Part shown: positions 1,935-63,990 of the stretch, in pieces
Numbering within the stretch: position 1 is the first letter of the stretch
Layout: the number at the start of each line of letters is the position of its first letter
The notes under the pieces: model-generated
The model's input: the letters and a program-made list of their open reading frames with translations, nothing else
Database searches by the model: none
What the model was told of the DNA's origin: nothing
Program-made: the position numbers and the translations under genes
From: a virus
IMG/VR virus record: IMGVR_UViG_3300045988_120820
Location: 72,335-136,334 of that record
Direction: 5' to 3' (one strand)
Length of the DNA stretch: 64,000 bases

Positions 1935-1961
1935 ATAATACCTCCTTTATTAATTATTAAA

Positions 1962-44108: not shown

Positions 44109-44943
44109 ATCCACGCTCATCCTCCTCTGTATAAGGAGTTGAATCATTGTTCATTAACTTCTTAATAGGGTTTAAGAAGTAACGATTTAACCACCATTTG
44201 ATTCTATCAACATCATCATATTCTGGATGAACATCTGGGATAGGTTCATTTTTTTCTATTTTAGCAATTAATGTCCCATAACTTAAGTTATCGTCTTCAC
44301 CATATTTACTCATCTTAGACGGTAAAACATTTAATTCTTCCATACGTTTGGAAATTTGATTAGTTAAGTTTTCAAATGCTTTTTGGTCATTCTTGACTAT
44401 AGCTCTTTCTCTTAGAACCTCTAACATACATATTGTTTTAATTAAATTAACTTCTTGAATGGCTTTAGATGGGTAATTATCTGTGTATTGTTCATATTTT
44501 CTTTGGAGTAATTCATACTCATCATCTTGAAATCCCTTACCCCAAAAGTTAACAACCTCACTTGAAGTAACTGTTTCCCCAGTAATAATATTAGTTACAC
44601 CATCATAAGTAAGTATATTATCTAAAGATGTTAATCCTTTAAATGCTTTGTCTCTATTGATTATTCTAGTATAATTACCTAAAAAATTATTACCATATTT
44701 TTCAACACATTTTAAATACGTTTCTTCATCATAATACATATCTAAAACCATACATAAATGTATGAAAGCTAACCTATGGTCGTTATTATAATTCTTTAAC
44801 AACTTTTTAAAATACTTGTCAACTACTTCCTTACTCATAGGTAATTTCTTATCATGTTCATAAAGCATTGATTGTGTAGAGTAGAAATCTCTAACGGTGG
44901 GTTTAAATTTACCTGTAGCTGAACATTGTTTTGTGTCTGCCAT
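44098..44943 (-). CDS. putative terminase small subunit
   Basis: 281 aa directly upstream of terL, overlapping it. First gene after three terminators. The call is positional. Confidence 0.5.
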   Translation of the reverse strand: MADTKQCSATGKFKPTVRDFYSTQSMLYEHDKKLPMSKEVVDKYFKKLLKNYNNDHRLAFIHLCMVLDMYYDEETYLKCVEKYGNNFLGNYTRIINRDKAFKGLTSLDNILTYDGVTNIITGETVTSSEVVNFWGKGFQDDEYELLQRKYEQYTDNYPSKAIQEVNLIKTICMLEVLRERAIVKNDQKAFENLTNQISKRMEELNVLPSKMSKYGEDDNLSYGTLIAKIEKNEPIPDVHPEYDDVDRIKWWLNRYFLNPIKKLMNNDSTPYTEEDERGYGK

Positions 44944-46833: not shown

Positions 46834-47139
46834 TTATTCACCTTGTATTCTTTTAGCAACAGACTTTTTAAGTCTAACCTTAACAACTTCTTTATCTTCA
46901 GTTTTAAAAGGTGTTTCTTTTCCTTCTTTAGTTTTCATCACACCTTCTCTACCTTTTTTAACTTTCTTATCTACTAAGAACATTCCTAGAGAAACAGATT
47001 CATCAACATCTATTTGTTCATATACAGAAGCTACAACATCTTCTAATGCTTTTAACACCTCTCTAGCTTCTGCCTGTGATACTTTTAGACCTCTTTCTTC
47101 TAAAGCTCCTTGTAGTTCTTTTATTACGTTTATTTCCAT
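46834..47139 (-). CDS. HU/IHF-like DNA-binding protein
   Basis: About 100 aa. N-terminal helical KELQGALEERGLKVSQAEAREVLKALEDVV, then a basic beta-arm (KKGREGVMKTKEGKETPFK), as in the HU family. Confidence 0.5.
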   Translation of the reverse strand: MEINVIKELQGALEERGLKVSQAEAREVLKALEDVVASVYEQIDVDESVSLGMFLVDKKVKKGREGVMKTKEGKETPFKTEDKEVVKVRLKKSVAKRIQGE

Positions 47140-47276: not shown

Positions 47277-48461
47277 TTATCGGCATTTTTTACACATAGG
47301 CATTAGTCCTTGTTTACCATTTTTATTAAATTTATTTGTTAATTTAATCTCACCACAAGCATTACATTTCTTATACTCTCCTTTTCTTATATTTAAATAG
47401 TATATATCTTCTATTTTTTCTTCATATACCATTGTAATTTTTTTAATTATAGTATTCAACATACTTTCGACACTTTTTCTATCTTTACCCAATTCCTTAG
47501 CTATATTTTTAATTGTCATACCATTTTTCCACATATGTAATAATTCTTCCTGTTTATCGGTTAATTCTACTTCTTTTAATACAGTTTCTAAATCTTGAAA
47601 CATACATCCTAAATCGCTTTGAAAGTCATATACTTCAGACTCTTTATATAATTGTAATAAAGCTTTAATGTGAGTAGGGTCTAATTCATCAAATTCATTC
47701 CAATCAGCTTGACCATTATCTTTAAGTGGTGCTTTAAAATTTATAGGTCTTATTAATTCTATTTTAGTTTGAACCATATCGTTTTTTAATTTACCAATAT
47801 GGTTCATTAAAAATGTTTTAGCTTGTTTATTTGTTTTTATTTTTTTATAACCTTTATTCTGCATATATTCAACAAATTCATTCAGCCTATCTTCTTTAAT
47901 ATAAGCCGACAATCTATCTATTTCTTTTTTATATTCTCTAAGTTCTAGACATCTCTTTAAATCATCACTTGTTACGACTTCGTCTTTAGATTTTTTATAA
48001 TTATCTTTTCTCCTCAATATAATTATTTCATCATTAATTGTATTTTCACCGTATCTATTAATACATTTTTTTTCTTTAATTAATGCATTTTTAAAATCTT
48101 CTTCATTATTATAAATTTTAATATTTTCTTTTTTATTTTTATTAGGGTCAGCCCAAAAAATATAGTTGGCTAACATTTCTAATGTTTTAGCAATATTACT
48201 GTCAGTATAAAGTTCGGTCTCGTTATTAGGTGTTAAATCAATATAACTTGTCTTATTGGGTCTTTGTTCAAATACTTCATTCCAAAATTCATCATTGCTA
48301 AATTCGACTCCGTTTTCATCTTTTGCTACATTCAATAAATCATATATATATTGTATTCTACCCTCTAAGTCATCTATAGTAGTATCTAATTTTGTATAAT
48401 CATAAATATTTTTACCGTCTATTTTGCTGAAAAATCTGTTAAAATATATTCTATTTCCCAT
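47277..48461 (-). CDS. putative transcription regulator with sigma-70 region-4-like HTH and C-terminal zinc ribbon
   Basis: LTDKQEELLHMWKNGMTIKNIAKELGKDRKSVESMLNTIIKKI resembles sigma region 4/LuxR-type HTH. C-terminal CNACGE...CKKC. Confidence 0.5.
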   Translation of the reverse strand: MGNRIYFNRFFSKIDGKNIYDYTKLDTTIDDLEGRIQYIYDLLNVAKDENGVEFSNDEFWNEVFEQRPNKTSYIDLTPNNETELYTDSNIAKTLEMLANYIFWADPNKNKKENIKIYNNEEDFKNALIKEKKCINRYGENTINDEIIILRRKDNYKKSKDEVVTSDDLKRCLELREYKKEIDRLSAYIKEDRLNEFVEYMQNKGYKKIKTNKQAKTFLMNHIGKLKNDMVQTKIELIRPINFKAPLKDNGQADWNEFDELDPTHIKALLQLYKESEVYDFQSDLGCMFQDLETVLKEVELTDKQEELLHMWKNGMTIKNIAKELGKDRKSVESMLNTIIKKITMVYEEKIEDIYYLNIRKGEYKKCNACGEIKLTNKFNKNGKQGLMPMCKKCR

Positions 48462-51543: not shown

Positions 51544-51646
51544 ATTACAAAAAATATGTTTGTCCTCCAAGATTTTTATTAAGTTTCTTTGACACCATTA
51601 CAAAAACACTCCGAATATATGTATTATTTTATAATTATATTTATAT

Positions 51647-51679
51647 AATTAACAACTAATAATGAAAAATTACCTATGA
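51647..51679 (-). promoter_or_regulatory. class-2 promoter-like element, copy C (degenerate box 2)
   Basis: - strand: CATAGGTAATTT-N12-TGTTAATT. Confidence 0.4.
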
Positions 51680-51793
51680 ATTATATTATTTAATATATAT
51701 AGTATTTAATTTAGTATTTAATAGTATTTAAGAAAGCTACTTCTATTGATATTCCTTGTATTCATCATATTATATATGAGTTTTAAAGGTTTT

Positions 51794-51968
51794 AATATGT
51801 GTTTTTAAGGGATATATATGTTAAATTAAGTATCATTTCGTTTATAAATATGTGTTTTTAAGGGCATTTTTATCTCCTTAATTACTCATAATAATTTAAA
51901 TATGTTAAAATAAGGGACTATTAATATGAGATATTAAGGGTTATAATATAACTATGAGAAATTAAGGA
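51794..51968 (+). repeat. iteron array upstream of rep (5 copies of AATATG-N7-TAAGGG)
   Basis: Copies at 51794..51811 and 51847..51864 are identical (AATATGTGTTTTTAAGGG). Degenerate copies at 51899, 51923 and 51951. The last overlaps the rep SD. Confidence 0.75.
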
Positions 51969-51977
51969 GGTTTTAAT

Positions 51978-52934
51978 ATGAGTAAAAATCAAATACTTAT
52001 GAAGAATAACACAATAGTTAGTGCTAGATATAACATATCTCTCATGCATAATAATATATTTATTTTCATATTGTATAAACTTCAGAAGGCTAAGTCTGGC
52101 AATGCATATTGCTATATAAGCAAACAAGAATTTCAAAATCTTATTTCAAATAAAACACAGAAAACAGTTCCAGGTATTAAAAAAGTATTAGATAATATGC
52201 TAGATGAAAAAATATATTTTAGAGAAGATGGTGAGTGGAGCTGTAAATATAGTATTATAGCTGGGTATGAATATAATAAAAAAGAAGATTTATTTAAAAT
52301 AGTTGTCATTGATAAAGTTTATCATCTTCTTATGAATTACAAAGCTTATACACCTATTAATATGAAAATATTTTTAACTTTAAAATCAATATATAGCCAA
52401 AGATTATATGACCTTCTTAGATTATGGAGTAATACAAAAGAAAATATAACATATGAACTAGACGAATTAAAAGATTTATTAATGTTAAACAACAAATATA
52501 ATTTGTATGCTGATTTTAAAAGAAATGTTCTTCAACGAGCTAAAAAGGAATTAAATAATACTGGAATGTTTGAATTATCATATACTGAAAATAAAAAAGG
52601 ACGAAGTGTAAAATCTATAACATTTCATGTAAAAGATTTAGATAAAAGAGTATATTTTAAAAAGAAACAAACTGAACAAATTTCACCATTGTCATACATT
52701 CCTAATAAGAGTTTAATATCAAATAATTGTATGTCGTCTCTTCAAAAAGATTTTGAGTTAATAGATTTCACGTATGAAGATATGAAACAGTCTTTTATTG
52801 AATCAGTCAATATAACATTATCTAAATTTAATGTAGATAAAATAGATTATAATGTATATCCTTACTTTAAAGCTGTGTTAAATAATAAAATTAAGTATTA
52901 TACTGACTTATTTATAAAGACAAGTATTTTTTAA
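51978..52934 (+). CDS. plasmid-type replication initiator (Rep_3/RepB family)
   Basis: N-terminal NTIVSARYNISLMHNNIFIFILYKLQ... and Y.QRLYDLLRLW motifs are typical of iteron-binding Rep_3 initiators. Iterons lie upstream. Confidence 0.75.
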   Translation: MSKNQILMKNNTIVSARYNISLMHNNIFIFILYKLQKAKSGNAYCYISKQEFQNLISNKTQKTVPGIKKVLDNMLDEKIYFREDGEWSCKYSIIAGYEYNKKEDLFKIVVIDKVYHLLMNYKAYTPINMKIFLTLKSIYSQRLYDLLRLWSNTKENITYELDELKDLLMLNNKYNLYADFKRNVLQRAKKELNNTGMFELSYTENKKGRSVKSITFHVKDLDKRVYFKKKQTEQISPLSYIPNKSLISNNCMSSLQKDFELIDFTYEDMKQSFIESVNITLSKFNVDKIDYNVYPYFKAVLNNKIKYYTDLFIKTSIF

Positions 52935-53374: not shown

Positions 53375-53557
53375 CTAAAATAATTTTTTAATTATTCTAT
53401 ATCCATATTCATATGAAGGATTTTTACTACATTTTTCTTTTAATTTATTTATTTCTTCTTCTATTTCTTTTTTATTTTTTGTTTCAATTTTATTCACATA
53501 AATATTTTCATATAAATCATCTCTATCTTCTATAGATTCATATAATGTATACTTCAT
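53375..53557 (-). CDS. hypothetical small protein
   Basis: 60-aa ORF. Its start overlaps the stop of the FtsK-like gene. Confidence 0.45.
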   Translation of the reverse strand: MKYTLYESIEDRDDLYENIYVNKIETKNKKEIEEEINKLKEKCSKNPSYEYGYRIIKKLF

Positions 53558-54687
53558 TATTTTACCTCCTCTTTCTTTTTACTATATTTTTCACTTATTT
53601 TTAATACAGTTTCTCTATCAATATAAAATGTCTGTATTTCTGTCCCATATTCTTCACAATCAAACACTCTCATATTTCCAGCTCCTCTTAATAAATGTAA
53701 ATATCCATAGTTAATTATCATATTAGACCTAATTTCATCTTTACATTTACCACCTATAACGATATTTATATTCTGTTTAGTTATATTAGGTAATATATCT
53801 TTAGAAGGTAATTGGGTAGTTAGTATTAGAAACACCCCTGCTCCTGCACCTCTACTAGCTATTAAAGCTAACATATTGTGAAAATCTTTATTCTTCATAT
53901 AAGAAGATAACTCCTCTATAACTATAAATCTAATAGGCATTTTTTTAAACTTTCTATATTGCCATATATCAGTACAATTTCTATAAGTAAACTGTTCATA
54001 TCTTTTATCTATATCTTGTATAGCATCAAATAATATATCTTCAGCTTCATCTCTATTTTCTGTATAATGAATTACATTTTTACAGTTTCTAAATTCAAAT
54101 AAATCTACTCTCTTTTCATTGATTAAATCTAACACAACGTCACATTTTCTTTTCATAACTAATTGAGATATAATAACTCTTAAACAATTAGATTTACCAC
54201 ATCTAGTAGCTCCTGCTAAATACATATGTGCATTAGAAGGCTCACTAAAATCAATATATCTAATACTACAATCTTCTAAATTAATTCCAATAGGTATTTT
54301 ATATCCTTTAGCTTTATGTTTTTCTAAATCAAAGTCAGCACACACTATCTCTTCCTTTTTAATTCTTAATTGAATATAATATCCATTCTTTTTAAAACTA
54401 ACATCTTCCTTTTCTTTATTTAATAAATGACAAAACTTATTCTTATTATTATTAAAATCGTCTATAGTCATCCCTGTAGGTATTATAAATTCATATATTT
54501 TATAGTTTTCGTCTTCCCATTTATTTCTTAACTTAGGTATATCTCCAGAAGCATTCTTCATATTGATATTATTAAAGAAATCAGTAAAATCAATATGTTT
54601 AATATTAAATATATCTAAAACTGATTTACATAATAATGTTATTGTATCCCAAATAGTATTTGTTAAAGGTTCTATTACATTACTCAT
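53557..54687 (-). CDS. FtsK/SpoIIIE-family DNA translocase-like ATPase
   Basis: Walker A GATRCGKSN, Walker B RFIVIEEL, RGAGAGVFLILTTQLPS signature. Confidence 0.75.
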   Translation of the reverse strand: MSNVIEPLTNTIWDTITLLCKSVLDIFNIKHIDFTDFFNNINMKNASGDIPKLRNKWEDENYKIYEFIIPTGMTIDDFNNNKNKFCHLLNKEKEDVSFKKNGYYIQLRIKKEEIVCADFDLEKHKAKGYKIPIGINLEDCSIRYIDFSEPSNAHMYLAGATRCGKSNCLRVIISQLVMKRKCDVVLDLINEKRVDLFEFRNCKNVIHYTENRDEAEDILFDAIQDIDKRYEQFTYRNCTDIWQYRKFKKMPIRFIVIEELSSYMKNKDFHNMLALIASRGAGAGVFLILTTQLPSKDILPNITKQNINIVIGGKCKDEIRSNMIINYGYLHLLRGAGNMRVFDCEEYGTEIQTFYIDRETVLKISEKYSKKKEEVK

Positions 54688-54805
54688 ATTATCATCTCCT
54701 TTTACTTAACTATATGCAAGTGTGTAGTAAATGTTTCCTAAATATTAAAAAAATATTTTAGTAACATTATTTAAATATATACATATACTATATTGAGGTG
54801 ATAAT

Positions 54806-55399
54806 ATGACGGAAAGAGATTTGAATGTATTAAACTTTATTAATTTAGTTACTATGTGTAGAACAGAACATATAAGAAACTTATTCTTTGCAGGATTAAC
54901 TAATACCACTTGGGATAGAAGAGCTAATAAATTAGTAGAATATAAGCAATTAAAACGCTTTAGAAGTGGAATATACAATAGAGAATATATTTATTATATT
55001 GAAAATAAACCTAACGAGAGATTACTTAGGCATGATATGTATATAACTGAATTAATATATAATTTATTATTACTAGGTGTAGAAATAATAAACGTAGATA
55101 GAAATGTTCAATTAGGTAATGTTATAGCAGATGGTTATATTATAATTAGATATAAAAAAGACAATACTATAATAAGGAAAGGTTTATTAATAGAAGTTCA
55201 ATTGCATGGTAGATTATCAGATTGTATAGATAAATATACAGATATTAATCCTATTAAAGAATATGTGATTGAACAAGGTATGCAAACTATTCCCTCTCTA
55301 CTTATTATAAGCGACTTACAGGGCAAGATTAGAAATAAAATTCTTAAAACTATGTGTGTAAACTGTAACTTAGAGTGTTTAGACAAGTGTATATTATAA
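54806..55399 (+). CDS. replication-relaxation family protein
   Basis: N-terminal wHTH-like LNVLNFINLVTMCRTEHIRNLFF and overall size match the pattern of that family. Confidence 0.55.
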   Translation: MTERDLNVLNFINLVTMCRTEHIRNLFFAGLTNTTWDRRANKLVEYKQLKRFRSGIYNREYIYYIENKPNERLLRHDMYITELIYNLLLLGVEIINVDRNVQLGNVIADGYIIIRYKKDNTIIRKGLLIEVQLHGRLSDCIDKYTDINPIKEYVIEQGMQTIPSLLIISDLQGKIRNKILKTMCVNCNLECLDKCIL

Positions 55400-55408
55400 T
55401 GTAAAATT

Positions 55409-55453
55409 GAGTGTGTGATACAGCTATTGCTTGTACTACACACTCTTTTATTT
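55409..55453 (+). terminator. rho-independent terminator
   Basis: GAGTGTGT...ACACACTC stem followed by TTTTATTT. Confidence 0.75.
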
Positions 55454-55467
55454 GGTATTTCAATGGT

Positions 55468-55497
55468 TTGACAAGGTAAAACTAATGGGTTTATATA
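55468..55497 (+). promoter_or_regulatory. sigma-A-type promoter reading into the ORF-free region
   Basis: TTGACA, 17-18 nt spacer, T(T)ATATA. Confidence 0.5.
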
Positions 55498-55795
55498 GAT
55501 GAATTAACATGAAATGGCGGTATATTATATCTGATTAAACCCGTATTTTCCCATTTATTTCCAATATATTAAATATACTATTAAATTCCCATTAAATCAA
55601 GTATTAATTTATAAACGTAAAATAACATATTTATAATATCATTTCCCGAGAGTAAGTACAATACGGTAATATCTAATTTTAATACTTTAAATTAGATAAA
55701 AATAAAGTATAATAAAAACTCATTTATTTCCTAGTATTCTTAATTTGTAAACATGTTGATGTTATAAAGATAGGAGTTTATAGAAATGGTTAAAA

Positions 55796-55900
55796 ATGTA
55801 ATTCGGTATTTTTTATGGCATGTAGTTGGTAAACTACTACACAGAATAAAATTTTTGTCAAGCCCTTCCGAATATGATACCACTCCCTAGATGTTGATAT
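55796..55900 (+). CDS. candidate 34-aa peptide (low confidence)
   Basis: AGGAG 9 nt upstream of the ATG. MVKNVIRYFLWHVVGKLLHRIKFLSSPSEYDTTP. Confidence 0.25.
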
Positions 55901-55944
55901 TTCAACATTTCTTGCCCTTTGAAAAAAAATTCCTTTGCCAAAAA

Positions 55945-55986
55945 GTACGATTAAGTATTAATTAATCGTACATTCTTAATTTTTTA
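55945..55986 (+). terminator. 10-bp hairpin plus T-run (terminator-like)
   Basis: GTACGATTAA...TTAATCGTAC followed by ATTCTTAATTTTTT. Confidence 0.45.
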
Positions 55987-55992
55987 AAGTGG

Positions 55993-56021
55993 TTGACTTG
56001 TCTAGGTGACGTGCTTATAAA
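55993..56021 (+). promoter_or_regulatory. sigma-A-type promoter firing into the DnaA boxes
   Basis: TTGACT, 17-nt spacer, TATAAA. Confidence 0.5.
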
Positions 56022-56036
56022 CACTATATCACATAG

Positions 56037-56067
56037 TTATCCACAGGTATTTTGCTATTTATCCACA
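56037..56067 (+). promoter_or_regulatory. two perfect DnaA boxes TTATCCACA, 22 nt apart
   Basis: 56037..56045 and 56059..56067, both followed by GG. Confidence 0.8.
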
Positions 56068-56159
56068 GGCTATTAATATATATAAATATATATACGAAAG
56101 CAAGTATTACTAATACTTACAACTACATTTCCGACTACATCTCAAGCTAACAACCTATA

Positions 56160-57400
56160 AGTCTATATAATCTAGTAATATCAACGCTTTCATACACTCA
56201 TACACTTTTTTTCTTAATCTAAGTTATCCACAAGTAAAATTTTTCTAATTTTTCCATTTTACATTTTCCCAGGTATCCCGTTTCACCTAATAATCTAAAG
56301 TAATTTATCTATTTTCCTTTATTTTCCTAAAGTGTTTACCTATAATTGTTTCACAGTTTACCTATATTAACCGATACCATATAACCGTTGCAACTACTAC
56401 ATCCTATACCTATACTGGGTATATTGTAAAGCGTGAAACCGTTGCAATTGCTACATTCTTCTACTTATTCTATTTGTGTATACCTATGCAGTGTATTCAA
56501 TCCTAGTTATATCAACACTTCTACTGTTTTCCTGTATATTTTTCTAAGTCCTGTAATGCTTGATAATGCTAGATAGTTAATAAATATACCTATGATAATA
56601 AAGATAATAAAGCATAATGTTAATTTACATTAATTAATTAAATCGCTCTCTTCTATTCTCTTTACTATATAAACTATGTATATATTTTGTCGAACTACTC
56701 TAAATCTAGTAATACCAACAACTATAGTATCTTATAGTAACTTTAAAATATAAAACTACTTCTATATTATTCCTAATTAAATAAAGTTAATACTTGATTT
56801 ACTTTACTATTTAAAAGGGACTCTATTATTTTACTTTAATTATTTAAGTTAGATATATTAATTGAATACTAACTTTAATTATTAAACTTTAAAATCAAAT
56901 TTTAAATCACTTATTCCATAAAAATAAATTTATACGATAAAATACTTTTTTGTGACTTTACTAAAATAAATAAATTGTACTATTCACTTTAAAATAATTT
57001 GTGACCCTATTTTTTACTATCAATAAATAAAGTATTCGACACTATAGACTTTATTTATGTAAAGTATTTGACATTAATTTATACCATATAAATTATTTTT
57101 TATGCAATTATTATCTTTTATGATACAATTATATTTTAATATATAAATTATTTTTTATGTAAAGAATTAATTATTTAGAGGGCGTAAACTTAAATAAATA
57201 AAGCGACCCTATTTTTCACTATCATTAATTAAAGTAAAACTTGTCGAACGCTTTAATAATTGACTGTGGAATCTATCTTTTACTTTAAAAATTAAAGTAT
57301 TTACCTATAAAAATTAATTTATATATAAATTTTTATTTTTATTATAGTTACCTAAAATATAGCTCAACCTGTTGATATTACTAACTTGTAGCGTTTTTGG
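56160..57400. repeat. mosaic of several short repeat families (origin/centromere-like)
   Basis: CTAGTAATATCAAC-like at ~56169, 56500 and 56702, inverted at 57366. AACCGTTGCAAYTRCTACAT at 56384 and 56446. GTTTACCTATA twice at 56334..56366. Five ~32-nt units, GAC(C/T)CTAT...TTTTACT...TAAAGTA, at ~56815, 56950, 57000, 57203 and 57271. Confidence 0.7.
56224..56232 (+). promoter_or_regulatory. third perfect DnaA box TTATCCACA
   Basis: Exact 9-mer, same orientation. Confidence 0.8.
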
Positions 57401-57431
57401 TTATCATTTTCTATCTATATATTTTTTTAGA

Positions 57432-57462
57432 AAAAAAATAAATTAAAAAAATTTAAAAAAAT
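57432..57462 (+). promoter_or_regulatory. phased A-tracts upstream of the first early promoter
   Basis: Three A7-8 runs about 11-12 nt apart. Confidence 0.5.
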
Positions 57463-57464
57463 GT

Positions 57465-57494
57465 TTGACAAGTTGAATAGAGGTGTGTTACTAT
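57465..57494 (+). promoter_or_regulatory. early promoter P1
   Basis: TTGACA, 18-nt spacer, TGtTACTAT. Confidence 0.6.
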
Positions 57495-57546
57495 ATAAAC
57501 ATAATAAACAACAAAAATAATTAATAAAAAAATTAATAAAAAGTTG

Positions 57547-57575
57547 TTGACAAAATAAACAACAAGTGATAACAT
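57547..57575 (+). promoter_or_regulatory. early promoter P2
   Basis: TTGACA, 17-nt spacer, TGaTAACAT. Confidence 0.6.
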
Positions 57576-57693
57576 TATAATATAAGTATTAGACAAGGGA
57601 GAACGCCCAATAGTTCATTAAGTAACAAAATATAATTCATGGGATTAGCTACTCACTAGCTAAAAATAATTAATAAAAATCCAAAAAAAGTAT

Positions 57694-57723
57694 TTGACAA
57701 AAGAATATAACTTGTACTACAAT
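57694..57723 (+). promoter_or_regulatory. early promoter P3
   Basis: TTGACA, 18-nt spacer, TACAAT. Confidence 0.55.
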
Positions 57724-57850
57724 TGAATTAATAATCAATCGACAACCTTGTATAACATAAGTAATAAAATCAAATCTAAAAAAACTTAAATGTTTTGATA
57801 TCCTCTATCAAGTGTTTAAGGAAATAATTAATAAAAAGGAGATAAGAAAA

Positions 57851-58207
57851 ATGTTAAAATTAACAGTAAAAAAAGAATTAGAAAACGGAAATTATCTAGT
57901 AAACTTTAATCTTGACGGTGAAGACTTAGGGAATAGAGAAGTAACATACGAATGGATAAGAGCCGACATAATAACTGGGAATAGAGAAGTAACATACGAA
58001 TTTGAAACAGACGTTAAATTCGACCATATAGAAGTTGACGAAGAAGACGGCGAAGGATTTGTATATATAATAACAACATTAGCTACAGAAGAAGGAATAA
58101 TGGTATTAAACGAAGAACAAAAAGTATACAAAAATTATAAAAGAGCATTAACACAAGGGCAAAAGCTAGCACAACAAATGGATACTATATTAATAGTAAT
58201 CAACTAG
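57851..58207 (+). CDS. hypothetical early protein with internal 16-codon duplication
   Basis: The ATG at 57851 follows AAGGAG. GNREVTYE occurs twice. Confidence 0.55.
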   Translation: MLKLTVKKELENGNYLVNFNLDGEDLGNREVTYEWIRADIITGNREVTYEFETDVKFDHIEVDEEDGEGFVYIITTLATEEGIMVLNEEQKVYKNYKRALTQGQKLAQQMDTILIVIN

Positions 58208-58695: not shown

Positions 58696-58748
58696 TCCTT
58701 CCAGCTCAATGCTATTATTTATGATAATGAAAACAATTAATAAAATTG

Positions 58749-58777
58749 TTGACAAATATTAAATGATAGTATATAAT
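58749..58777 (+). promoter_or_regulatory. early promoter P4
   Basis: TTGACA, 17 nt (…AAATGATAGTA), TATAAT. Confidence 0.7.
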
Positions 58778-58812
58778 ATCGATATAAAATAAATTGATAG
58801 GAGTGATGAGTT

Positions 58813-58959
58813 ATGAAGAAAGTATATTATAGCTTATATTTAGTAACAGAAGAAAGCGAAGAATTTTTAGCAAAAGTAAAGTCAAAAGGTCTTGCAATAA
58901 GAACTAAAATGTTATATAACAAAATATATGAAGGCAAAGGAAAAATAATTATTAAATAG
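58813..58959 (+). CDS. small early protein (48 aa, hand-found)
   Basis: AGGAG SD. MKKVYYSLYLVTEESEEFLAKVKSKGLAIRTKMLYNKIYEGKGKIIIK. Confidence 0.5.
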   Translation: MKKVYYSLYLVTEESEEFLAKVKSKGLAIRTKMLYNKIYEGKGKIIIK

Positions 58960-59031
58960 AGGATTTTAAGCCCTCTAGCTCAAGCTATCGAATGATAGCA
59001 AATTGTATTAATAAAAAGGAGATATAAGATT

Positions 59032-59196
59032 ATGAAAAATAAAATGTTATTTGTATTAGTGTTAGTATTAGGAATTGTTATATTTAAAAATCAAATATCC
59101 ATAGCATTGATGTATGCAGTTGACTGTATAGGTTATGCATTCAACATTAATGTGGTTGATATTATTGATTTGCTTAATACAATATACTATTTATAG
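59032..59196 (+). CDS. small membrane/secreted early protein (54 aa, hand-found)
   Basis: AAGGAG SD. MKNKMLFVLVLVLGIVIF... hydrophobic N-terminus. Confidence 0.5.
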   Translation: MKNKMLFVLVLVLGIVIFKNQISIALMYAVDCIGYAFNINVVDIIDLLNTIYYL

Positions 59197-59245
59197 TATT
59201 AAGTAATGATGGCAAAAATAATTAATAAATTTTTTAAAATAATTA

Positions 59246-59274
59246 TTGACAACATCTAAATGATAGCATATAAT
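59246..59274 (+). promoter_or_regulatory. early promoter P5
   Basis: TTGACA, 17 nt (…AAATGATAGCA), TATAAT. Confidence 0.7.
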
Positions 59275-59309
59275 ATTAAGTATAATAAATGAAAAGGAGA
59301 AATGATATT

Positions 59310-59657
59310 ATGAAAAATTTAAGAAATGAATTATTAGAAATGAGTGCTAAAGAAACTGGTATAAAATTATTTGTTATAAATGACTTATTAAGTCTAGAAA
59401 ATGATAGTGAAATAAAAGATTATATGAACGATGTTTTATGTTACGGTTGCCAAAGTGGAATTGTTACAAGTTTAATATATACAAGTGATACTAAAAACTT
59501 TATTAAAAAATACCTTGAAGAATGCTTAGAAATATTAGATGAGTTTATCCAACAAATAGGAAAACCAGCATTTATAATAGATAGCAACAGTATAGCCTGG
59601 TTAGCATATGAAGAAACATTGAGAAATTTAGTTGTAGAATTAGATTTAGATATATAG
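59310..59657 (+). CDS. hypothetical early protein
   Basis: The ATG at 59310 follows AAGGAG (the track start at 59289 precedes the SD). Confidence 0.55.
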   Translation: MKNLRNELLEMSAKETGIKLFVINDLLSLENDSEIKDYMNDVLCYGCQSGIVTSLIYTSDTKNFIKKYLEECLEILDEFIQQIGKPAFIIDSNSIAWLAYEETLRNLVVELDLDI

Positions 59658-59718
59658 AGGGTAAAATCCCTCTAGCTCAATACTATTAAAATGATAACAA
59701 AAATAATTAATAAAATTA

Positions 59719-59747
59719 TTGACAAGTTGTAAATGATAGTATATAAT
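59719..59747 (+). promoter_or_regulatory. early promoter P6
   Basis: TTGACA, 17 nt (…AAATGATAGTA), TATAAT. Confidence 0.7.
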
Positions 59748-59782
59748 ATTAAATATAGAATAAATAAAGGGGAGTCGATAAT

Positions 59783-60280
59783 ATGAAATATTTTGAAAGT
59801 TGTAAGAGTAAAGAAGACGCAAAAAAATTATATAAAAAATTAGCTTTCCAATATCATCCCGATAAAGGCGGGGATGTTGAAATAATGAAAGCCATCAATA
59901 ATGAATTTGATGACTTTATGAAGAACTTTAGAGAAGAAAAAAAAGATAGTAAAAAAGAATATGAATTTACGGCAACTACATACAGAAAACTTATAGAACA
60001 ATTAATAAAATTTGACGATATAACCATTGATGTAGTAGGCTGTTTTATATGGATAACTGGCAACACTTATCCAATAAAAGAAGAATTAAAACAATTAGGA
60101 TTTAGATTTAGTAAAAATAAAAAATCATGGTATATTGCGCCAGAAGAATATATGAAAAATAGAGTCAATTATAAGAAAAAATACAGTATGAATGAAATAA
60201 AAAATAAATATGGATGTACTTCTATAAAATCAAAAGGAGGATACAAGAAGGAAAAAGATAATATAATAATGATAGGATAA
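59783..60280 (+). CDS. J-domain (DnaJ-like) protein
   Basis: AKKLYKKLAFQYHPDKGGD contains the HPD motif and helix II/III pattern. Confidence 0.8.
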   Translation: MKYFESCKSKEDAKKLYKKLAFQYHPDKGGDVEIMKAINNEFDDFMKNFREEKKDSKKEYEFTATTYRKLIEQLIKFDDITIDVVGCFIWITGNTYPIKEELKQLGFRFSKNKKSWYIAPEEYMKNRVNYKKKYSMNEIKNKYGCTSIKSKGGYKKEKDNIIMIG

Positions 60281-60355
60281 ATAATTAATAATACTGCTTA
60301 TAAGAACATAAGCAGTATAGCTCAAAATGATTATATAAATTATTAATAAAAACTA

Positions 60356-60385
60356 TTGACAAAAGATAGTAAAATGTGATATTAT
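60356..60385 (+). promoter_or_regulatory. early promoter P7
   Basis: TTGACA, 18-nt spacer, TGaTATTAT. Confidence 0.6.
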
Positions 60386-60426
60386 ATAATCATGATAAAA
60401 ATAATTAATAAATAGGAGTGGTAAAT

Positions 60427-60657
60427 ATGAAATTACAAAAATTTGACGGAAGAATAATTAAATTGAATGATAGTACAGAAACTTATGAATGGACTTCTGG
60501 AGAACAAGAGTATCAATTGGTATATGACAATGAAGGAGATTTATTAGGGGTGAATATAGAAGGTATAGAACAGAATATACTAGATGATATAGTAGACAGA
60601 CCATACTCTTATGACTTCCCTTCTACATTAGATGAATATAACAAGGGTTTATTTTAA
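60427..60657 (+). CDS. hypothetical early protein
   Basis: The ATG at 60427 follows AGGAGTGG. Confidence 0.55.
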   Translation: MKLQKFDGRIIKLNDSTETYEWTSGEQEYQLVYDNEGDLLGVNIEGIEQNILDDIVDRPYSYDFPSTLDEYNKGLF

Positions 60658-60737
60658 GCCCTTTGCTCAAAAGCTATCAGAATGATAGTGAATAATATTA
60701 ATATAAAGTAAATTATATTAAAATAGGAGTGGTAAAT

Positions 60738-61286
60738 ATGAATAAAAAAACATTATGGACTATATTAGGTATAACAAGTAATGCTATATTTCTAATAGGA
60801 TTATTATTAATAATAGTATCATTTAAATATGATACTTATAAAGAATATGCATATACAGAAACGACTAGCATAAACATACAAAAAGATGACAAAATAACAG
60901 CTAATGAACGTCCTCTTGATGATAGTCAAGAGCATGACAATAGAGTTAATAAAGATAATAAAGATTATGCTACTAATAACACTAGTGATTATGTTATAAA
61001 AACAACTACAAAAAAATCTACATACAATAATAATAGCAAAAACAATAGTAATGATAATAAAAATTATAGTAACACTAATACTAATAATAGTAATAATAAG
61101 AATGATAGCAATAATAGTAATACTAATAATACTAATAATAGTAATACTAATAATAGTAATAACAATAATAACTATACAGTTGAATATACAAATACCAGTT
61201 ATTGCGGATTTTGTGGAAAATGCTTGAATAACAACGATGGTATTTGTCAAGACTGTAGAGAAATAAGAAGTAAATTAGGAGAATAA
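60738..61286 (+). CDS. membrane-anchored Asn/Ser-rich protein with C-terminal zinc ribbon
   Basis: N-terminal TM (LWTILGITSNAIFLIGLLLIIV), a long N/S/K low-complexity tract, and CGFCGKC...CQDC. Confidence 0.55.
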   Translation: MNKKTLWTILGITSNAIFLIGLLLIIVSFKYDTYKEYAYTETTSINIQKDDKITANERPLDDSQEHDNRVNKDNKDYATNNTSDYVIKTTTKKSTYNNNSKNNSNDNKNYSNTNTNNSNNKNDSNNSNTNNTNNSNTNNSNNNNNYTVEYTNTSYCGFCGKCLNNNDGICQDCREIRSKLGE

Positions 61287-61349
61287 TTTTTCTCCTTTGC
61301 TCAATGCTATCCAATGATAGTAAATAATATTAATTAGGAGTGATAAATT

Positions 61350-61598
61350 ATGAATAAGATAATAAAATGTTTAGAAGAAAATAATATAAAATATACAAAA
61401 GCAGTAAATAATAAATTATTAGTAGTCAAAATAGGTAATTATACTATAGAAATTTTAAAAGATGGTAAATTTTTTATAGCACAAAAATATAAATATGGTG
61501 AAAAATGTAGCCCAGAAATAAAGAAGGACTTGAACTATACATTAAGATTAATTAAACACGAAATAAGAAGAAATAATGGAGAATATAGTAGAATATAA
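61350..61598 (+). CDS. hypothetical early protein
   Basis: AGGAGTG SD. 82 aa. Confidence 0.55.
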   Translation: MNKIIKCLEENNIKYTKAVNNKLLVVKIGNYTIEILKDGKFFIAQKYKYGEKCSPEIKKDLNYTLRLIKHEIRRNNGEYSRI

Positions 61599-61613
61599 AA
61601 GGAAGGTGATATT

Positions 61614-61910
61614 ATGCAAATAATAATAAATCATATTGATAGAGTTAGAAAATATGTAAAAAATGATAGTAAAAATAGAATGATGATAGCTATTGATTAT
61701 AACGAAGAAAATAATAATTGGGAACGCTATCAAATATATTATAATAGAAATATGGAATTTTCCGAACCGTTTAACTATAAAGTATTACATACTTTAGAAC
61801 AAGTAAGAGAAGAAATGGACGATATAAGGGAATTTTTTGGTGAAATAGATTATATATGTTACTTTGATAAGAATAATGAATATAAAGAAATAAATATAAA
61901 ACAAAAATAA
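61614..61910 (+). CDS. hypothetical early protein
   Basis: GGAAGGTG SD. The stop lies inside the junction motif. Confidence 0.55.
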   Translation: MQIIINHIDRVRKYVKNDSKNRMMIAIDYNEENNNWERYQIYYNRNMEFSEPFNYKVLHTLEQVREEMDDIREFFGEIDYICYFDKNNEYKEINIKQK

Positions 61911-61922
61911 TTAATAAAGTTG

Positions 61923-61952
61923 TTGACAAAAGATAATAAAATATGATATTAT
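61923..61952 (+). promoter_or_regulatory. early promoter P8
   Basis: TTGACA, 18-nt spacer, TGaTATTAT. Followed by a 9-bp hairpin at ~61968..61994. Confidence 0.55.
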
Positions 61953-62026
61953 ATAAATATAAAAGGTTTACTGGTTTATCCTTAAAACCAGTAATAAAAA
62001 TAATTAATAAAATTATTAAAAAGCTC

Positions 62027-62056
62027 TTGACAAATTTATTTTTAGTATGATATAAT
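62027..62056 (+). promoter_or_regulatory. early promoter P9
   Basis: TTGACA, 18-nt spacer, TGaTATAAT. Its upstream 40 nt is repeated exactly at 63961..64000. Confidence 0.65.
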
Positions 62057-62090
62057 TAATATATAAGATAAATAAAGGGGAGTTGATAGT

Positions 62091-62330
62091 ATGAAATATA
62101 TAGAATTAACTGGTTATATATTAGAATGTAAAGCTGAATATATTGAATCGATAAGAAAATATTTAGATGACAAAGGATTCGATGGATATTATAATGTATA
62201 TGATTATTCTGAAGAGTCATTAAGAATCGTAGGCAGTATACCATGCGACAATAAAGAAAAATGTATTGACGAGTTTATAGACTTTTTAGAAAATAATAAT
62301 ATGTGCTTTATAGGTGTGTTTGGGGAGTAA
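62091..62330 (+). CDS. hypothetical early protein
   Basis: GGGGAG SD. 79 aa. Confidence 0.55.
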   Translation: MKYIELTGYILECKAEYIESIRKYLDDKGFDGYYNVYDYSEESLRIVGSIPCDNKEKCIDEFIDFLENNNMCFIGVFGE

Positions 62331-62386
62331 TTCCCCTTTAGTTCACCTTCAAATGATGAGGGAATATATTAATTAGGAGTGATAAT

Positions 62387-62614
62387 ATGCTAAATAAATG
62401 TTTAATAGCTGTAAAATCTAAAAACGAATGGAAAAATAATACATTTAATAATCCTTTAGGGGGATATTTATATTTAGGAAGTTTTAAAAATGATTTAAAA
62501 GATTTTATATTAAATGGTAATGTATCCTCTAAATCATGGACACAAATTCCACAAGATTATATTTTAGATAATACTGCTAGACAAAATTTTATATATTACA
62601 TTAAATGGGCATAA
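62387..62614 (+). CDS. hypothetical early protein
   Basis: AGGAGTG SD. 75 aa. Confidence 0.55.
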   Translation: MLNKCLIAVKSKNEWKNNTFNNPLGGYLYLGSFKNDLKDFILNGNVSSKSWTQIPQDYILDNTARQNFIYYIKWA

Positions 62615-62717
62615 ATGATACCAAAAATAATTAATAATACTGTCTATATTTTTATAGGTGGTATTGCTCAATACTGCAAGAATGATAGTAAATAATATTA
62701 AAGGGGATGAATATATT

Positions 62718-63512
62718 ATGAATGAATTACAAAAGACAAATAAGGATGATATAAGAATATCATCAAGAGAAGTGGCTGAAATGATGGGAATAGAACATAA
62801 AAATTTAATAAGAAAAATAGATAGTATCAACAAGGATTTTGACAGCGCAAAATTGAGCTACCAAAAATATTGGACGAAAAGCACTTTTAAGAATAGGGGC
62901 AAAACATATAGAGAATATCAAATTACAAAATTAGGTTGTGAATTTCTAGCACATAAAAGCACTGGAACAAAAGGTAATTTATTTACTGCTAGATATATGG
63001 ATAGATTTCAAATGATGGAAGAATATATTAATAATCAAATACCACAATTGTCACTAGAAGACCAAGCCGTATTAAATATAATAAATGCAAATGATAAACT
63101 TGATAAAGCGTTAGCTATAAAGGATTATAAAGATATCATAGAAAAGCCTTTAATTGAAGAGATAGACGAATTAAAAGAACTTAATAATAAATTTAAAGTT
63201 TTCATATCTAAAGATGGATTAATAGATGTTGATACATTCAGTAAAGTTTTAGCTATTAAAGAATTGGGAAGAAATAATATGTACAAGTGGTTTAGAAATA
63301 ACAAATACTTAATGAAGAATAACCGTCCTTATCAACATTATATAAATCAAGAATTATTCAAATTAAAAAACATAGGATATAAAACAAATTATATAGGAGA
63401 ACAAATACCTCTATTTAAAACATACATAACTAAAAAAGGATTAGGATACTTTTTAAATAAGTTCGTTGAAGACGGTTATATAACTTTTACAAATGATACC
63501 AAAAATAATTAA
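62718..63512 (+). CDS. Rha-family regulatory protein fused to KilAC/ANT antirepressor-type C-terminal domain
   Basis: ISSREVAEMMGIEHKNLIRKID (Rha N-domain) and ...FSKVLAIKELGRNNMYKWFRNNKYLMKNNRPYQHYINQELFKLK (KilAC-like). The ATG at 62718 follows AGGGGATG. Confidence 0.75.
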   Translation: MNELQKTNKDDIRISSREVAEMMGIEHKNLIRKIDSINKDFDSAKLSYQKYWTKSTFKNRGKTYREYQITKLGCEFLAHKSTGTKGNLFTARYMDRFQMMEEYINNQIPQLSLEDQAVLNIINANDKLDKALAIKDYKDIIEKPLIEEIDELKELNNKFKVFISKDGLIDVDTFSKVLAIKELGRNNMYKWFRNNKYLMKNNRPYQHYINQELFKLKNIGYKTNYIGEQIPLFKTYITKKGLGYFLNKFVEDGYITFTNDTKNN

Positions 63513-63524
63513 TAAATATTTATA

Positions 63525-63552
63525 GGCTGGAGTTTTATCCAGTCTTTTTTAT
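63525..63552 (+). terminator. rho-independent terminator
   Basis: GGCTGGA/TCCAGTC stem followed by TTTTTTATT. Confidence 0.75.
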
Positions 63553-63891
63553 TGCCTATAAAATGATAATGATTATCATTAACATTAAATATCAACTCCA
63601 GGAGCTTTTTTATAAAAACTCAATAAAAGCGACCTCTTAAATGCCATTCTAAGGCGTTTTAAAATGATTAAGGTATAAATACCTTGTGGACTATCGAATT
63701 CCTTTATAATGGATTATACAGTATATTTTATATTTTTATATATAATTGATAATGCTTTTCATTTATATATTTATTCTCAATTGGAAATGATACTAAAATA
63801 TATTAAATTATAAAATGATAATAATAATCATAACTATAAAAATTAATTTATATATAAAATAATATATTTTTAAAAAAGTTTATATTTATTA

Positions 63892-63920
63892 TTGATTTTT
63901 AAAATTAAATATGATACTAT
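63892..63920 (+). promoter_or_regulatory. promoter candidate
   Basis: TTGATT, 17-nt spacer, TGaTACTAT. Confidence 0.45.
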
Positions 63921-63990
63921 ATAACTATAGTAATGAATAAAAAGTTTTAAAAAGATTATAAAAATAATTAATAAAATTATTAAAAAGCTC

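Follow-up and report, generated by a model that had tools for sequence, protein, structure and literature searches.

What does a large gut phage do with more than two kilobases of DNA that contain no recognizable gene, and why is such a stretch kept in the same place by its relatives? We addressed this question for 64,000 nucleotides of viral DNA (positions 72,335 to 136,334 of IMG/VR record IMGVR_UViG_3300045988_120820; hereafter the window), which are identical to the final 64 kb of a scaffold of 136,390 bp from a human-gut metagenome (identity was 100% in a comparison of 5 kb) and belong to an uncultured gut clostridial phage or phage-plasmid of ~137 kb. Between positions 55444 and 57811 (2,368 nt) neither strand has an open reading frame (ORF) of 60 amino acids (aa) or more, as a preliminary description of this DNA had stated, and this gap is 3.7 times as long as the next longest in the window (646 nt). 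It separates leftward genes at 1 to 54.7 kb, which include those for the small terminase (YonG_N), the terminase large subunit and structural proteins, from small rightward early genes that start at 57.85 kb. The preliminary description had proposed a composite plasmid-type origin (oriV) and partition locus that recruits the host initiator DnaA. Our own, tentative answer, drawn from sequence comparisons, is that the gap is a conserved, modular, origin-like and early-control hub with DnaA and Spo0A motifs, placed where the two gene blocks diverge.

The strongest family-wide signal in the gap had been absent from the preliminary description. In an unbiased scan, all 7-mers and 8-mers were ranked by their enrichment in the gaps relative to the flanks of five lineages; the top 7-mer was TGTCGAA (complement TTCGACA), with 16 copies in 12.5 kb of gap sequence and only 3 in ~85 kb of flanks, and the 8-mer TTGTCGAA was present 13 times in the gaps and never in the flanks. 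TGTCGAA is the consensus binding sequence of Spo0A, the 0A box, and Spo0A-type boxes are, as far as sequence can tell, a family-wide signature of the gap. Perfect copies number two to five per gap in 18 of 18 loci, where a first-order Markov model predicts ~0.1; the three in the window lie within a 560-nt stretch (Table 1). Their positions shift between lineages while the count is maintained, and in far lineages only the core and a 5' T are constant. Each box also coincides with a weak TCGACA hexamer resembling a promoter -35 element. In Bacillus subtilis, phosphorylated Spo0A (Spo0A~P) bound to 0A boxes blocks initiation at the chromosomal origin oriC and at the origins of phage phi29, and represses the phi29 early promoters (PMC2731898, PMC3485338). 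We consider the conserved set of putative Spo0A boxes the most informative feature of the gap, and one that is new here.

The boxes belong to an A+T-rich core of ~0.7 kb with a GC content of 15%, in a window that is itself A+T-rich (~26% GC); no other 400-nt duplex of the window is as unstable as the one in this core. This core also holds many dyads and the A/T-rich 19-mers listed in Table 1, a family that is kept in far lineages (four copies in the related locus L025), and both GC and AT skews change sign between ~57000 and 57400. A further palindromic A/T element of 24-25 nt, CTATAAAAATTAATTTATATATAAA, was seen twice in the window, at 57302-57326 and 63831-63855, each time ~155 nt upstream of a TTGACA early promoter; additional copies are in early-region spacers of L025, and the element is a candidate operator.

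Every relative that we found keeps a gene-free gap of 2.4-2.7 kb in the same place. Seventeen related IMG/VR loci (designated by L numbers) lie on viral contigs of 114-140 kb, and the gap is retained even where the 197-aa protein encoded at its left edge is only 79% identical (L025, L027, L032 and L033). Most of the gap is barely alignable between lineages; the survivors are a 120-nt two-hairpin block (55869-55991), short islands such as CGTGAAACCGTTG, which is the best conserved of them, the A/T-rich 19-mer family and the promoter bank at the right end. To the left of the two-hairpin block, the spacer that separates it from the terminator of the 197-aa gene is poorly conserved. Among close relatives the gap as a whole diverges more than the flanking genes, but its centre (56251-56900) has a mean pairwise identity of 0.925, compared with 0.88 at third codon positions of those genes, and is therefore under constraint.

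If the gap were a decayed coding sequence or a neutral spacer, that is, a hypervariable recombination hotspot whose motifs arose by chance or hitch-hiked, one could readily understand its divergence among close relatives, its mosaic of swapped cassettes, the assemblies that break in it and its minus strand, which is purine-rich like the coding strand of the leftward neighbours. We nevertheless hold this to be highly improbable: the length and position of the gap are kept across lineages, its centre is more conserved than synonymous sites, motif counts are held despite positional turnover, and the motif enrichments are far beyond chance. Nor is any frame rescued by alternative genetic codes, since no long ORF opens when TGA or TAG is reassigned. 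One small ORF alone is preceded by a ribosome-binding site (34 aa, 55786-55890), and we rejected it as a protein gene, its start codon or frame being lost in many relatives.

The breaks themselves are numerous. The ends of 11 of 23 related contigs (L002, L003, L004, L005, L006, L010, L012, L015, L017, L018 and L020, some of them near-complete at 114-136 kb) fall within the gap or at its border, and of the contigs with the neighbouring gene in the 79%-identity lineage, most measure 6 kb or less, making the gap a hotspot of assembly breaks. These ends are scattered from window position 55402 to ~57610, which rules out a fixed genome end in the gap and points to assembly breaks caused by micro-diversity.

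Large non-coding RNAs (GOLLD, ROOL) are known from some Firmicutes phages, and the gap might encode another such structured RNA; a hairpin after the promoter termed P2, whose CTCAC loop is conserved between the window and L025 while the stem is different, would fit. Yet this is the explanation to which we give least credence. A scan with Rfam 15 gave no match at E values up to 1 for the window region or for L032, and neither a tRNA nor a tmRNA was found in the region. The plus strand of the gap centre hardly folds (-3 to -11 kcal/mol per 120 nt), a sliding alignment-fold scan found no conserved structure there, and the conserved two-hairpin block has no compensatory changes, its conservation being at the level of sequence.

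DnaA boxes form the second class of motifs, and their distribution is different. Exact copies of TTATCCACA occur in the 64 kb only three times (0.84 expected), and three co-oriented copies inside 196 nt are far beyond chance; the preliminary description had located all of them correctly, with the first two 22 nt apart. It had also placed a promoter (TTGACT-17-TATAAA) just upstream. Both hexamers do match the consensus at five of six positions, but the final invariant T is missing and a promoter scan did not pick the sequence up. At this '-10' the window has the degenerate box TTATAAACA, where most relatives read TTATCAACA and L018 has an exact box, and because it lies 22 nt before box 1, we take it to be the first, imperfect member of a three-box DnaA array in 22-nt phase. 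In close relatives, two to five exact boxes were present in 17 of 17 loci, in the same phase (arrays of two to six boxes when inexact ones are included), while the flanks of these 17 combined contain only two. Box 3 is expanded to two exact boxes and one with a single mismatch in L014, and to three exact and one with a single mismatch in L016, with a spacing of ~11-23 nt. Judged by this pattern, the boxes are clearly selected within the close lineage. As a family marker, tandem boxes 22 nt apart proved not diagnostic, the pattern being common in viral contigs (at least 120 matches).

After box 2 come GG and a 24-nt stretch made up of A/T only, the order of box and unwinding element seen at chromosomal origins. 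The DnaA-trio pattern requires three or more NAN units on the proper strand, no further than 16 bp from a box and followed by A+T-rich DNA, and in the basal unwinding system (BUS) two tandem boxes are up to 3 bp apart (PMC8287927). After the GG, the sequence CTA TTA ATA (complement, 3' to 5', GAT AAT TAT) provides three NAN units before a fourth breaks the pattern, a match that counts for little, since its chance is ~1 in 8 per frame in a pure A/T run; the box pair of the gap is 13 bp apart, unlike the BUS pair. Outside the close lineage, exact TTATCCACA copies are lacking from the gaps of L019, L025 and L032, and the module as a whole is absent from L019, L025, L027, L032 and L033, all of which keep a gap of 2.5-2.7 kb. 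In L019, L025 and L032 the place of the box-bearing type A cassette is taken by an unrelated type B cassette of similar length, and this is so in L019 although its flanking gene is 88% identical to that of the window. The DnaA boxes are therefore not the core of the function.

A mosaic of this kind has a counterpart in the injection-stop (iss) region of phage T5, a kilobase-scale untranslated array that contains DnaA boxes as well as palindromes and repeats, both direct and inverted, and borders pre-early genes with strong promoters (bioRxiv 10.1101/866236). The descriptive resemblance is striking: both regions have several DnaA boxes beside the genes expressed first, both are conserved across relatives, and the small early genes adjoining our gap each have a near-consensus promoter. 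One might thus imagine a DNA-entry or membrane-tethering region that pauses or anchors incoming DNA. The architecture makes this reading remote, however. In T5 the two boxes of a pair are separated by 3 bp and lie in a 131-bp inverted repeat that has a fixed 52-bp spacer and a distant partner, whereas the boxes of the gap are direct, in 22-nt phase and without a large inverted-repeat partner. The T5 region belongs to the terminal repeat of a linear genome with a Gram-negative host and has no homology to the gap; here we saw no sign of a terminal repeat or fixed end, contig ends are scattered, and one related contig overlaps itself end to end, so that the genome map is circular. In the far lineages there are no DnaA boxes, the gap has no sequence similarity to any phage record, and a role of DnaA in T5 is itself only a hypothesis.

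The remaining repeats were largely as first described. Four copies of CTAGTAATATCAAC (one inverted), two of GTTTACCTATA in tandem, two of AACCGTTGCAAYTRCTACAT and two of ATATAAATTATTTTTTATG were all recovered, ATATAAATTATTTTTTATG with two inverted relatives in addition, and hairpin-forming inverted repeats are present at 55891-55908 and 55945-55971, the second of which looks like a bidirectional terminator. Five reported units of ~32 nt ending in TAAAGTA are really two pairs with a 32-nt offset, 56800/56832 and 57028/57060, and the right-hand pair carries 0A-box cores. Self-alignment, a check proposed earlier, gave no regular repeat array; even at high sensitivity it revealed only short scattered repeats, which excludes a hidden tandem unit of ~200 nt. 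As their main repeat, close relatives have TAATATCAAC, and far lineages have TAATTGCAA at similar offsets, a switch with lineage that would be expected for sites of a phage-encoded DNA-binding protein and that resembles initiator-iteron or repressor-operator pairs.

Several families of short co-oriented repeats, close to genes for a Rep3 initiator and an FtsK/SpoIIIE/TraB-like ATPase, could also suggest the partition site, or centromere, of a plasmid prophage. TraB of actinomycete plasmids recognizes clt sites, which are short direct repeats beside its own gene. We consider a centromere very unlikely all the same, and this half of the earlier proposal is not supported: the repeats do not form a regular array but lie scattered (with spacings of 331, 203 and 665 nt for CTAGTAATATCAAC), no ParA-, ParB-, ParM- or TubZ-type gene or domain was found among the neighbouring genes, and the gap has no host parS consensus. 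The nearest cultured relatives, the 131-kb phage-plasmids phiCD211 and phiCDIF1296T of Clostridioides difficile (~31% identity in the small terminase), offer a contrast, phiCD211 having a parA gene of which none was seen here at the equivalent junction. The gap is not the Rep3 origin either; a complete iteron origin lies upstream of rep3, 4 kb away, and ATATGTGTTTTTAAGGG-type iterons are absent from 55.4-57.8 kb even with 3 mismatches allowed, in keeping with the physical separation noted before. Two phage proteins earlier suggested as aids to origin remodelling fared less well, since the J-domain match is below the Pfam threshold and the one protein tested as an HU-like candidate (101 aa, 46834-47139) matches no Pfam family; a rough search of the window for HU motifs was negative too.

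Transcription signals frame the gap on both sides. At its right end, period-10 A-tracts (57435-57462), already recognized as phased, precede three tandem strong promoters of near-consensus sequence; inward-firing promoters, as had been claimed, are not supported, the promoters at 57465, 57547 and 57694 all pointing rightward, out of the gap, and being of the same type as those before each downstream early gene. Weak promoters inside the gap are not conserved.

These signals sustain the main rival to our interpretation, a purely transcriptional control hub and insulator without an origin, in which terminators, operators for phage regulators and weak promoters responsive to Spo0A or DnaA would time the early promoters and separate the divergent blocks, possibly with some non-coding transcripts. 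The promoter bank with its UP-like A-tracts, the bidirectional-terminator-like hairpin and the gene terminator on the left, and the -35-like hexamer at each 0A box all fit such a hub, as do the second copy of the A/T palindromic 24-mer, which precedes a further early promoter at 63.8 kb by ~155 nt, and the lysis-lysogeny switch at the equivalent junction of phiCD211. DnaA and Spo0A, moreover, are transcription factors as well as replication regulators. The C-rich, G-poor plus strand of the centre (GC skew -0.34, compared with -0.12 at four-fold sites), being nearly unfoldable, would suit loading of Rho. On the other hand, 2 kb far exceeds the needs of known switches, no regulator gene lies inside or beside the gap, the weak internal promoters are not conserved, and a DnaA array against a pure A/T run, together with the least stable DNA at a skew switch, resembles an origin and not an operator. 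The same motifs could serve either function, and we judge the solely transcriptional account to be somewhat unlikely.

Table 1. Features of the gap and its borders, with the Rep3 origin for context (window coordinates)
Feature	Position	Strand	Remarks
Rep3 iteron origin (outside the gap)	51616..51940	+	four ATATGTGTTTTTAAGGG-type iterons, 51774-51940; 8%-GC stretch, 51622-51721; upstream of rep3 (51978-52934)
Intrinsic-terminator-like hairpin and U-run	55409..55453	+	ends the 197-aa gene, left edge of gap; -20.3 kcal/mol, z = -4.6, then UUUUAUUU
Two-hairpin block	55869..55991		kept in all lineages; 81% identity to L025, where adjoining sequence is unalignable
Exchangeable cassette, type A, with DnaA boxes	55992..56380		unrelated type B cassette in L019, L025 and L032
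Degenerate DnaA box TTATAAACA	56015..56023	+	22 nt before box 1; overlaps the '-10' of the preliminary description
DnaA box 1, TTATCCACA	56037..56045	+	exact match
DnaA box 2, TTATCCACA	56059..56067	+	exact match, then GG
A/T-only run, 24 nt	56071..56094		candidate local unwinding element, directly after box 2
CTAGTAATATCAAC family, 4 copies	56172-56185, 56503-56516, 56706-56719; 57371-57384	+ (first three); - (last)	all inside gap
DnaA box 3, TTATCCACA	56224..56232	+	exact match
GTTTACCTATA, 2 copies	56334..56366	+	22 nt apart
AACCGTTGCAAYTRCTACAT, 2 copies (56383, 56437)	56383..56456	+	flank dyad TATACC-N7-GGTATA (56405-56423)
Second dyad, ATACC-N7-GGTAT	56479-56496		
Spo0A-type box TGTCGAA	56688..56694	+	consensus match
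Least stable 400-nt DNA duplex of the window	56774..57173		15% GC, dyad-rich
A/T-rich 19-mer family ATATAAATT(A/T)ATTTTTATG	56917..57324	- (56917, 57306); + (57086, 57141)	
49-nt repeat	56986-57034 and 57188-57236		
Spo0A-type box TGTCGAA	57035..57041	-	consensus match
Degenerate partner box TGTCAAA	57067..57073	-	32 nt from the 57035 box; perfect in most relatives
Spo0A-type box TGTCGAA	57242..57248	+	consensus match
A-tract (UP-like) run and promoter bank	57435..57723	+	sigma-A-type promoters at 57465-57494, 57547-57575, 57694-57723
First early gene	57851..58207	+	ATG with AGGAG ribosome-binding site; right edge of gap

The elements listed in Table 1, their enrichment and their conservation or turnover are observations; from them we infer the protein-DNA interactions and the origin function of the following scheme. 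The terminators on the left would seal off the 197-aa gene. In this lineage, the exchangeable cassette of ~390 nt would present 22-nt-phased boxes for host DnaA against a pure A/T run, while the lineage-specific co-oriented repeats and dyads are probably sites for a phage-encoded DNA-binding protein. The A+T-rich core, here together with the DnaA module, may be a second origin without Rep3 iterons, possibly the lytic one, which host DnaA would help to open, and the gap may also act as a master early switch. During sporulation, Spo0A~P would bind the 0A boxes and shut the locus, an action with precedents at oriC of B. subtilis and at the origins and early promoters of phi29. Of the earlier proposal, this scheme retains the conserved, site-rich locus with a DnaA cluster beside an A/T run; its origin-like, DnaA-recruiting part is plausible but lineage-specific.

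Several points weigh against an origin-like hub read by Spo0A and DnaA. (i) The DnaA module is missing from sister lineages, as described above. (ii) Between the Spo0A-type boxes and the strong early promoters there are 220-780 nt, more than simple occlusion would allow. (iii) Read on the other strand, the 0A box (TTCGACA) is similar to a -35 hexamer as well, and close relatives conserve the longer sequence TGTCGAATACTTTA around it, beyond the Spo0A core, so that the motif could in truth be read by a protein of the phage or be a variant promoter. (iv) That the host sporulates is a deduction from C. difficile phage relatives and clostridial Rep3 homologues. (v) The skew switch and the divergent gene orientation are confounded with the direction of transcription, and the Rep3 origin is only ~5 kb away. 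(vi) In relatives of the phiCD211 type, the corresponding junction is occupied by a helix-turn-helix (HTH) switch and parA; it has no comparable gap and itself contains no 0A boxes. (vii) With a complete iteron origin already beside rep3, a second origin is not required. A bolder version of our reading, which we regard as doubtful, is that in this family of ~137-kb phage-plasmids the hub reads Spo0A~P in every lineage and DnaA, through the exchangeable cassette, in one, gating a second origin and the early promoters, and that the element falls silent and rides into the spore, possibly with the help of the adjacent SpoIIIE/FtsK-like ATPase.

Comparison with known systems bears on these possibilities. 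Like a B. subtilis-type oriC, the gap has co-oriented, helically phased consensus DnaA boxes that adjoin an A/T-only run in the canonical orientation, together with consensus 0A boxes in the same locus and a switch in strand composition between divergent gene blocks. It differs in having neither dnaA nor dnaN, in its 22-nt box spacing, in the absence of the DnaA module from sister lineages, in 0A boxes that lie 460-1000 nt from the DnaA boxes without overlap, and in its location on a phage or phage-plasmid that also has a Rep3 iteron origin. With phages phi29 and Nf it shares a concentration of TGTCGAA boxes in a non-coding control region of early transcription or replication, and the expected outcome of phi29-type 0A boxes is shut-down in sporulating hosts (PMC2731898, PMC12991052). 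Unlike the gap's element, a clostridial phage or phage-plasmid of ~137 kb with a circular map, phi29 is a virulent, protein-primed Bacillus phage of 19 kb whose boxes are directly at promoters and at the linear ends; the putative boxes of the gap are in an A+T-rich core of ~0.6-0.7 kb, more than 200 nt from strong promoters, and no parS sites were found. The SPbeta repeated element and the MrpR operator were set aside as not comparable, those sites being dispersed at promoters.

A second origin beside an iteron origin would have precedents. Phage P1 uses oriR for plasmid maintenance and oriL for lytic growth, the latter inside repL and activated by transcription, and the B. subtilis plasmid pLS20 has a minimal replicon of ~1.1 kb with a Rep-less, non-coding theta origin. 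Shared with the present element are an iteron-and-Rep origin beside a separate candidate second origin, and non-coding, dyad-rich DNA of at least 1 kb between divergent genes. The element further shares with phiCD211 and phiCDIF1296T the small terminase, a sigma-like factor gene, a metallophosphatase-type ('exonuclease') gene and the divergence of late from early genes at one junction. The junction of those phages, by contrast, is occupied by HTH regulators and a partition gene of the parA type; its gaps measure no more than 0.4-0.9 kb, and it contains neither DnaA nor 0A boxes. No homologous gap was found at the phiCD211 junction or in a Paraclostridium Rep3 plasmid.

Immediately to the left of the gap are the genes for the Rep3-family initiator, the FtsK/SpoIIIE-like ATPase and the 197-aa protein. 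The closest Rep3 homologues (40-43% identity) are encoded by plasmids of Paraclostridium, Clostridium and Clostridioides, all of them endospore formers. A single genome match to the element was obtained, to a 1.9-kb contig of an uncultured Firmicutes metagenome-assembled genome; the gap DNA had no similarity to phage or plasmid records, and in a megablast search with 24 kb the sole match was 90 nt long, to C. difficile-type phage-plasmids. The 197-aa protein had no match in Pfam, NCBIfam or PDB, and its AlphaFold model has a predicted local distance difference test (pLDDT) score of 45. Further to the left, the large terminase is seemingly split into separate ORFs for Terminase_6N and Terminase_6C, ~350 nt apart (42008-43282 (-) and 43632-44147 (-)), which could reflect an intron, an insertion or a frameshift. 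A 394-aa protein (47277-48461 (-)) has weak matches to sigma-70 region 4 and to GerE-type helix-turn-helix domains; it probably corresponds to the protein annotated as 'sigma factor' in phiCD211 and is thus a candidate phage-encoded sigma-like factor.

To the right, the first early gene is a cassette that can be exchanged: between otherwise close relatives, identity is 7-41% across 57800-58200 and back above 90% from 58300. In the early block at 58745-63990, many of the small genes have a near-consensus TTGACA-17/18-TATAAT promoter of their own, with a conserved AAATGATAG spacer motif; such an array is typical of host-takeover modules, and this one is unusually dense. The motif GCTCAA-N(1-16)-ATGATAR is intergenic (6 copies against 0.13 expected; 58704, 58978, 59675, 60665, 61299 and 62666, all +), lies just downstream of early-gene stop codons and in several cases holds the hairpin GCTATC-N4-GATAGC. 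It may function as a phage-specific promoter, or else signal RNA processing or termination. The CTCAC-loop hairpin after P2 is at 57645-57663 (+) in the window and at 12683-12701 in L025, with differing stems (TTAGCTA/TAGCTAA and GTTATGA/TCATAAC); it has no U-run and no significant folding z-score, and is possibly a small RNA or a protein site. In far lineages, GC-richer, structured-looking segments such as GGCGGATAGCCCTTCGGGATTTAATC (L025 12850-13090; L032 12700-12830 and 13050-13200, without an Rfam match in L032) lie in the leader that follows the promoter bank and precedes the first early gene; the window lacks such segments.

Throughout the window, the 13-mer AATAATTAATAAA (up to 1 mismatch) has 45 copies, compared with 6.9 expected, just upstream of ribosome-binding sites or -35 hexamers (for example 1946-1958 (-), 53384-53396 (-), 57516-57528 (+) and 63963-63975 (+)). 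It is strictly polar: 27 of 27 copies left of the gap are on the minus strand and 18 of 18 to the right on the plus strand, with none in 53397-57515, and the rep3 and 197-aa genes do without it. We counted this flip of strand, exactly across the gap, in favour of a hub at the divergence of two gene blocks.

The observation that started this analysis is real and more than chance, and its first interpretation was half right. Whatever its precise function, the gap is the natural place to seek the replication origin and the incompatibility determinants of these elements, and it accounts for the frequent assembly breaks there. If our reading is correct, the locus would couple replication and early expression of widespread, uncultured large gut phage-plasmids to the replication initiator and the sporulation master switch of the host, and host-sensor modules such as the DnaA-box cassette would be swappable between lineages. 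It would also provide a testable cis-element for the choice between activity and dormancy, and for persistence in spores, in temperate phages of spore-forming gut clostridia, and would extend the 'spore entrapment' logic of phi29 to large temperate gut phages with modular host-sensor cassettes.

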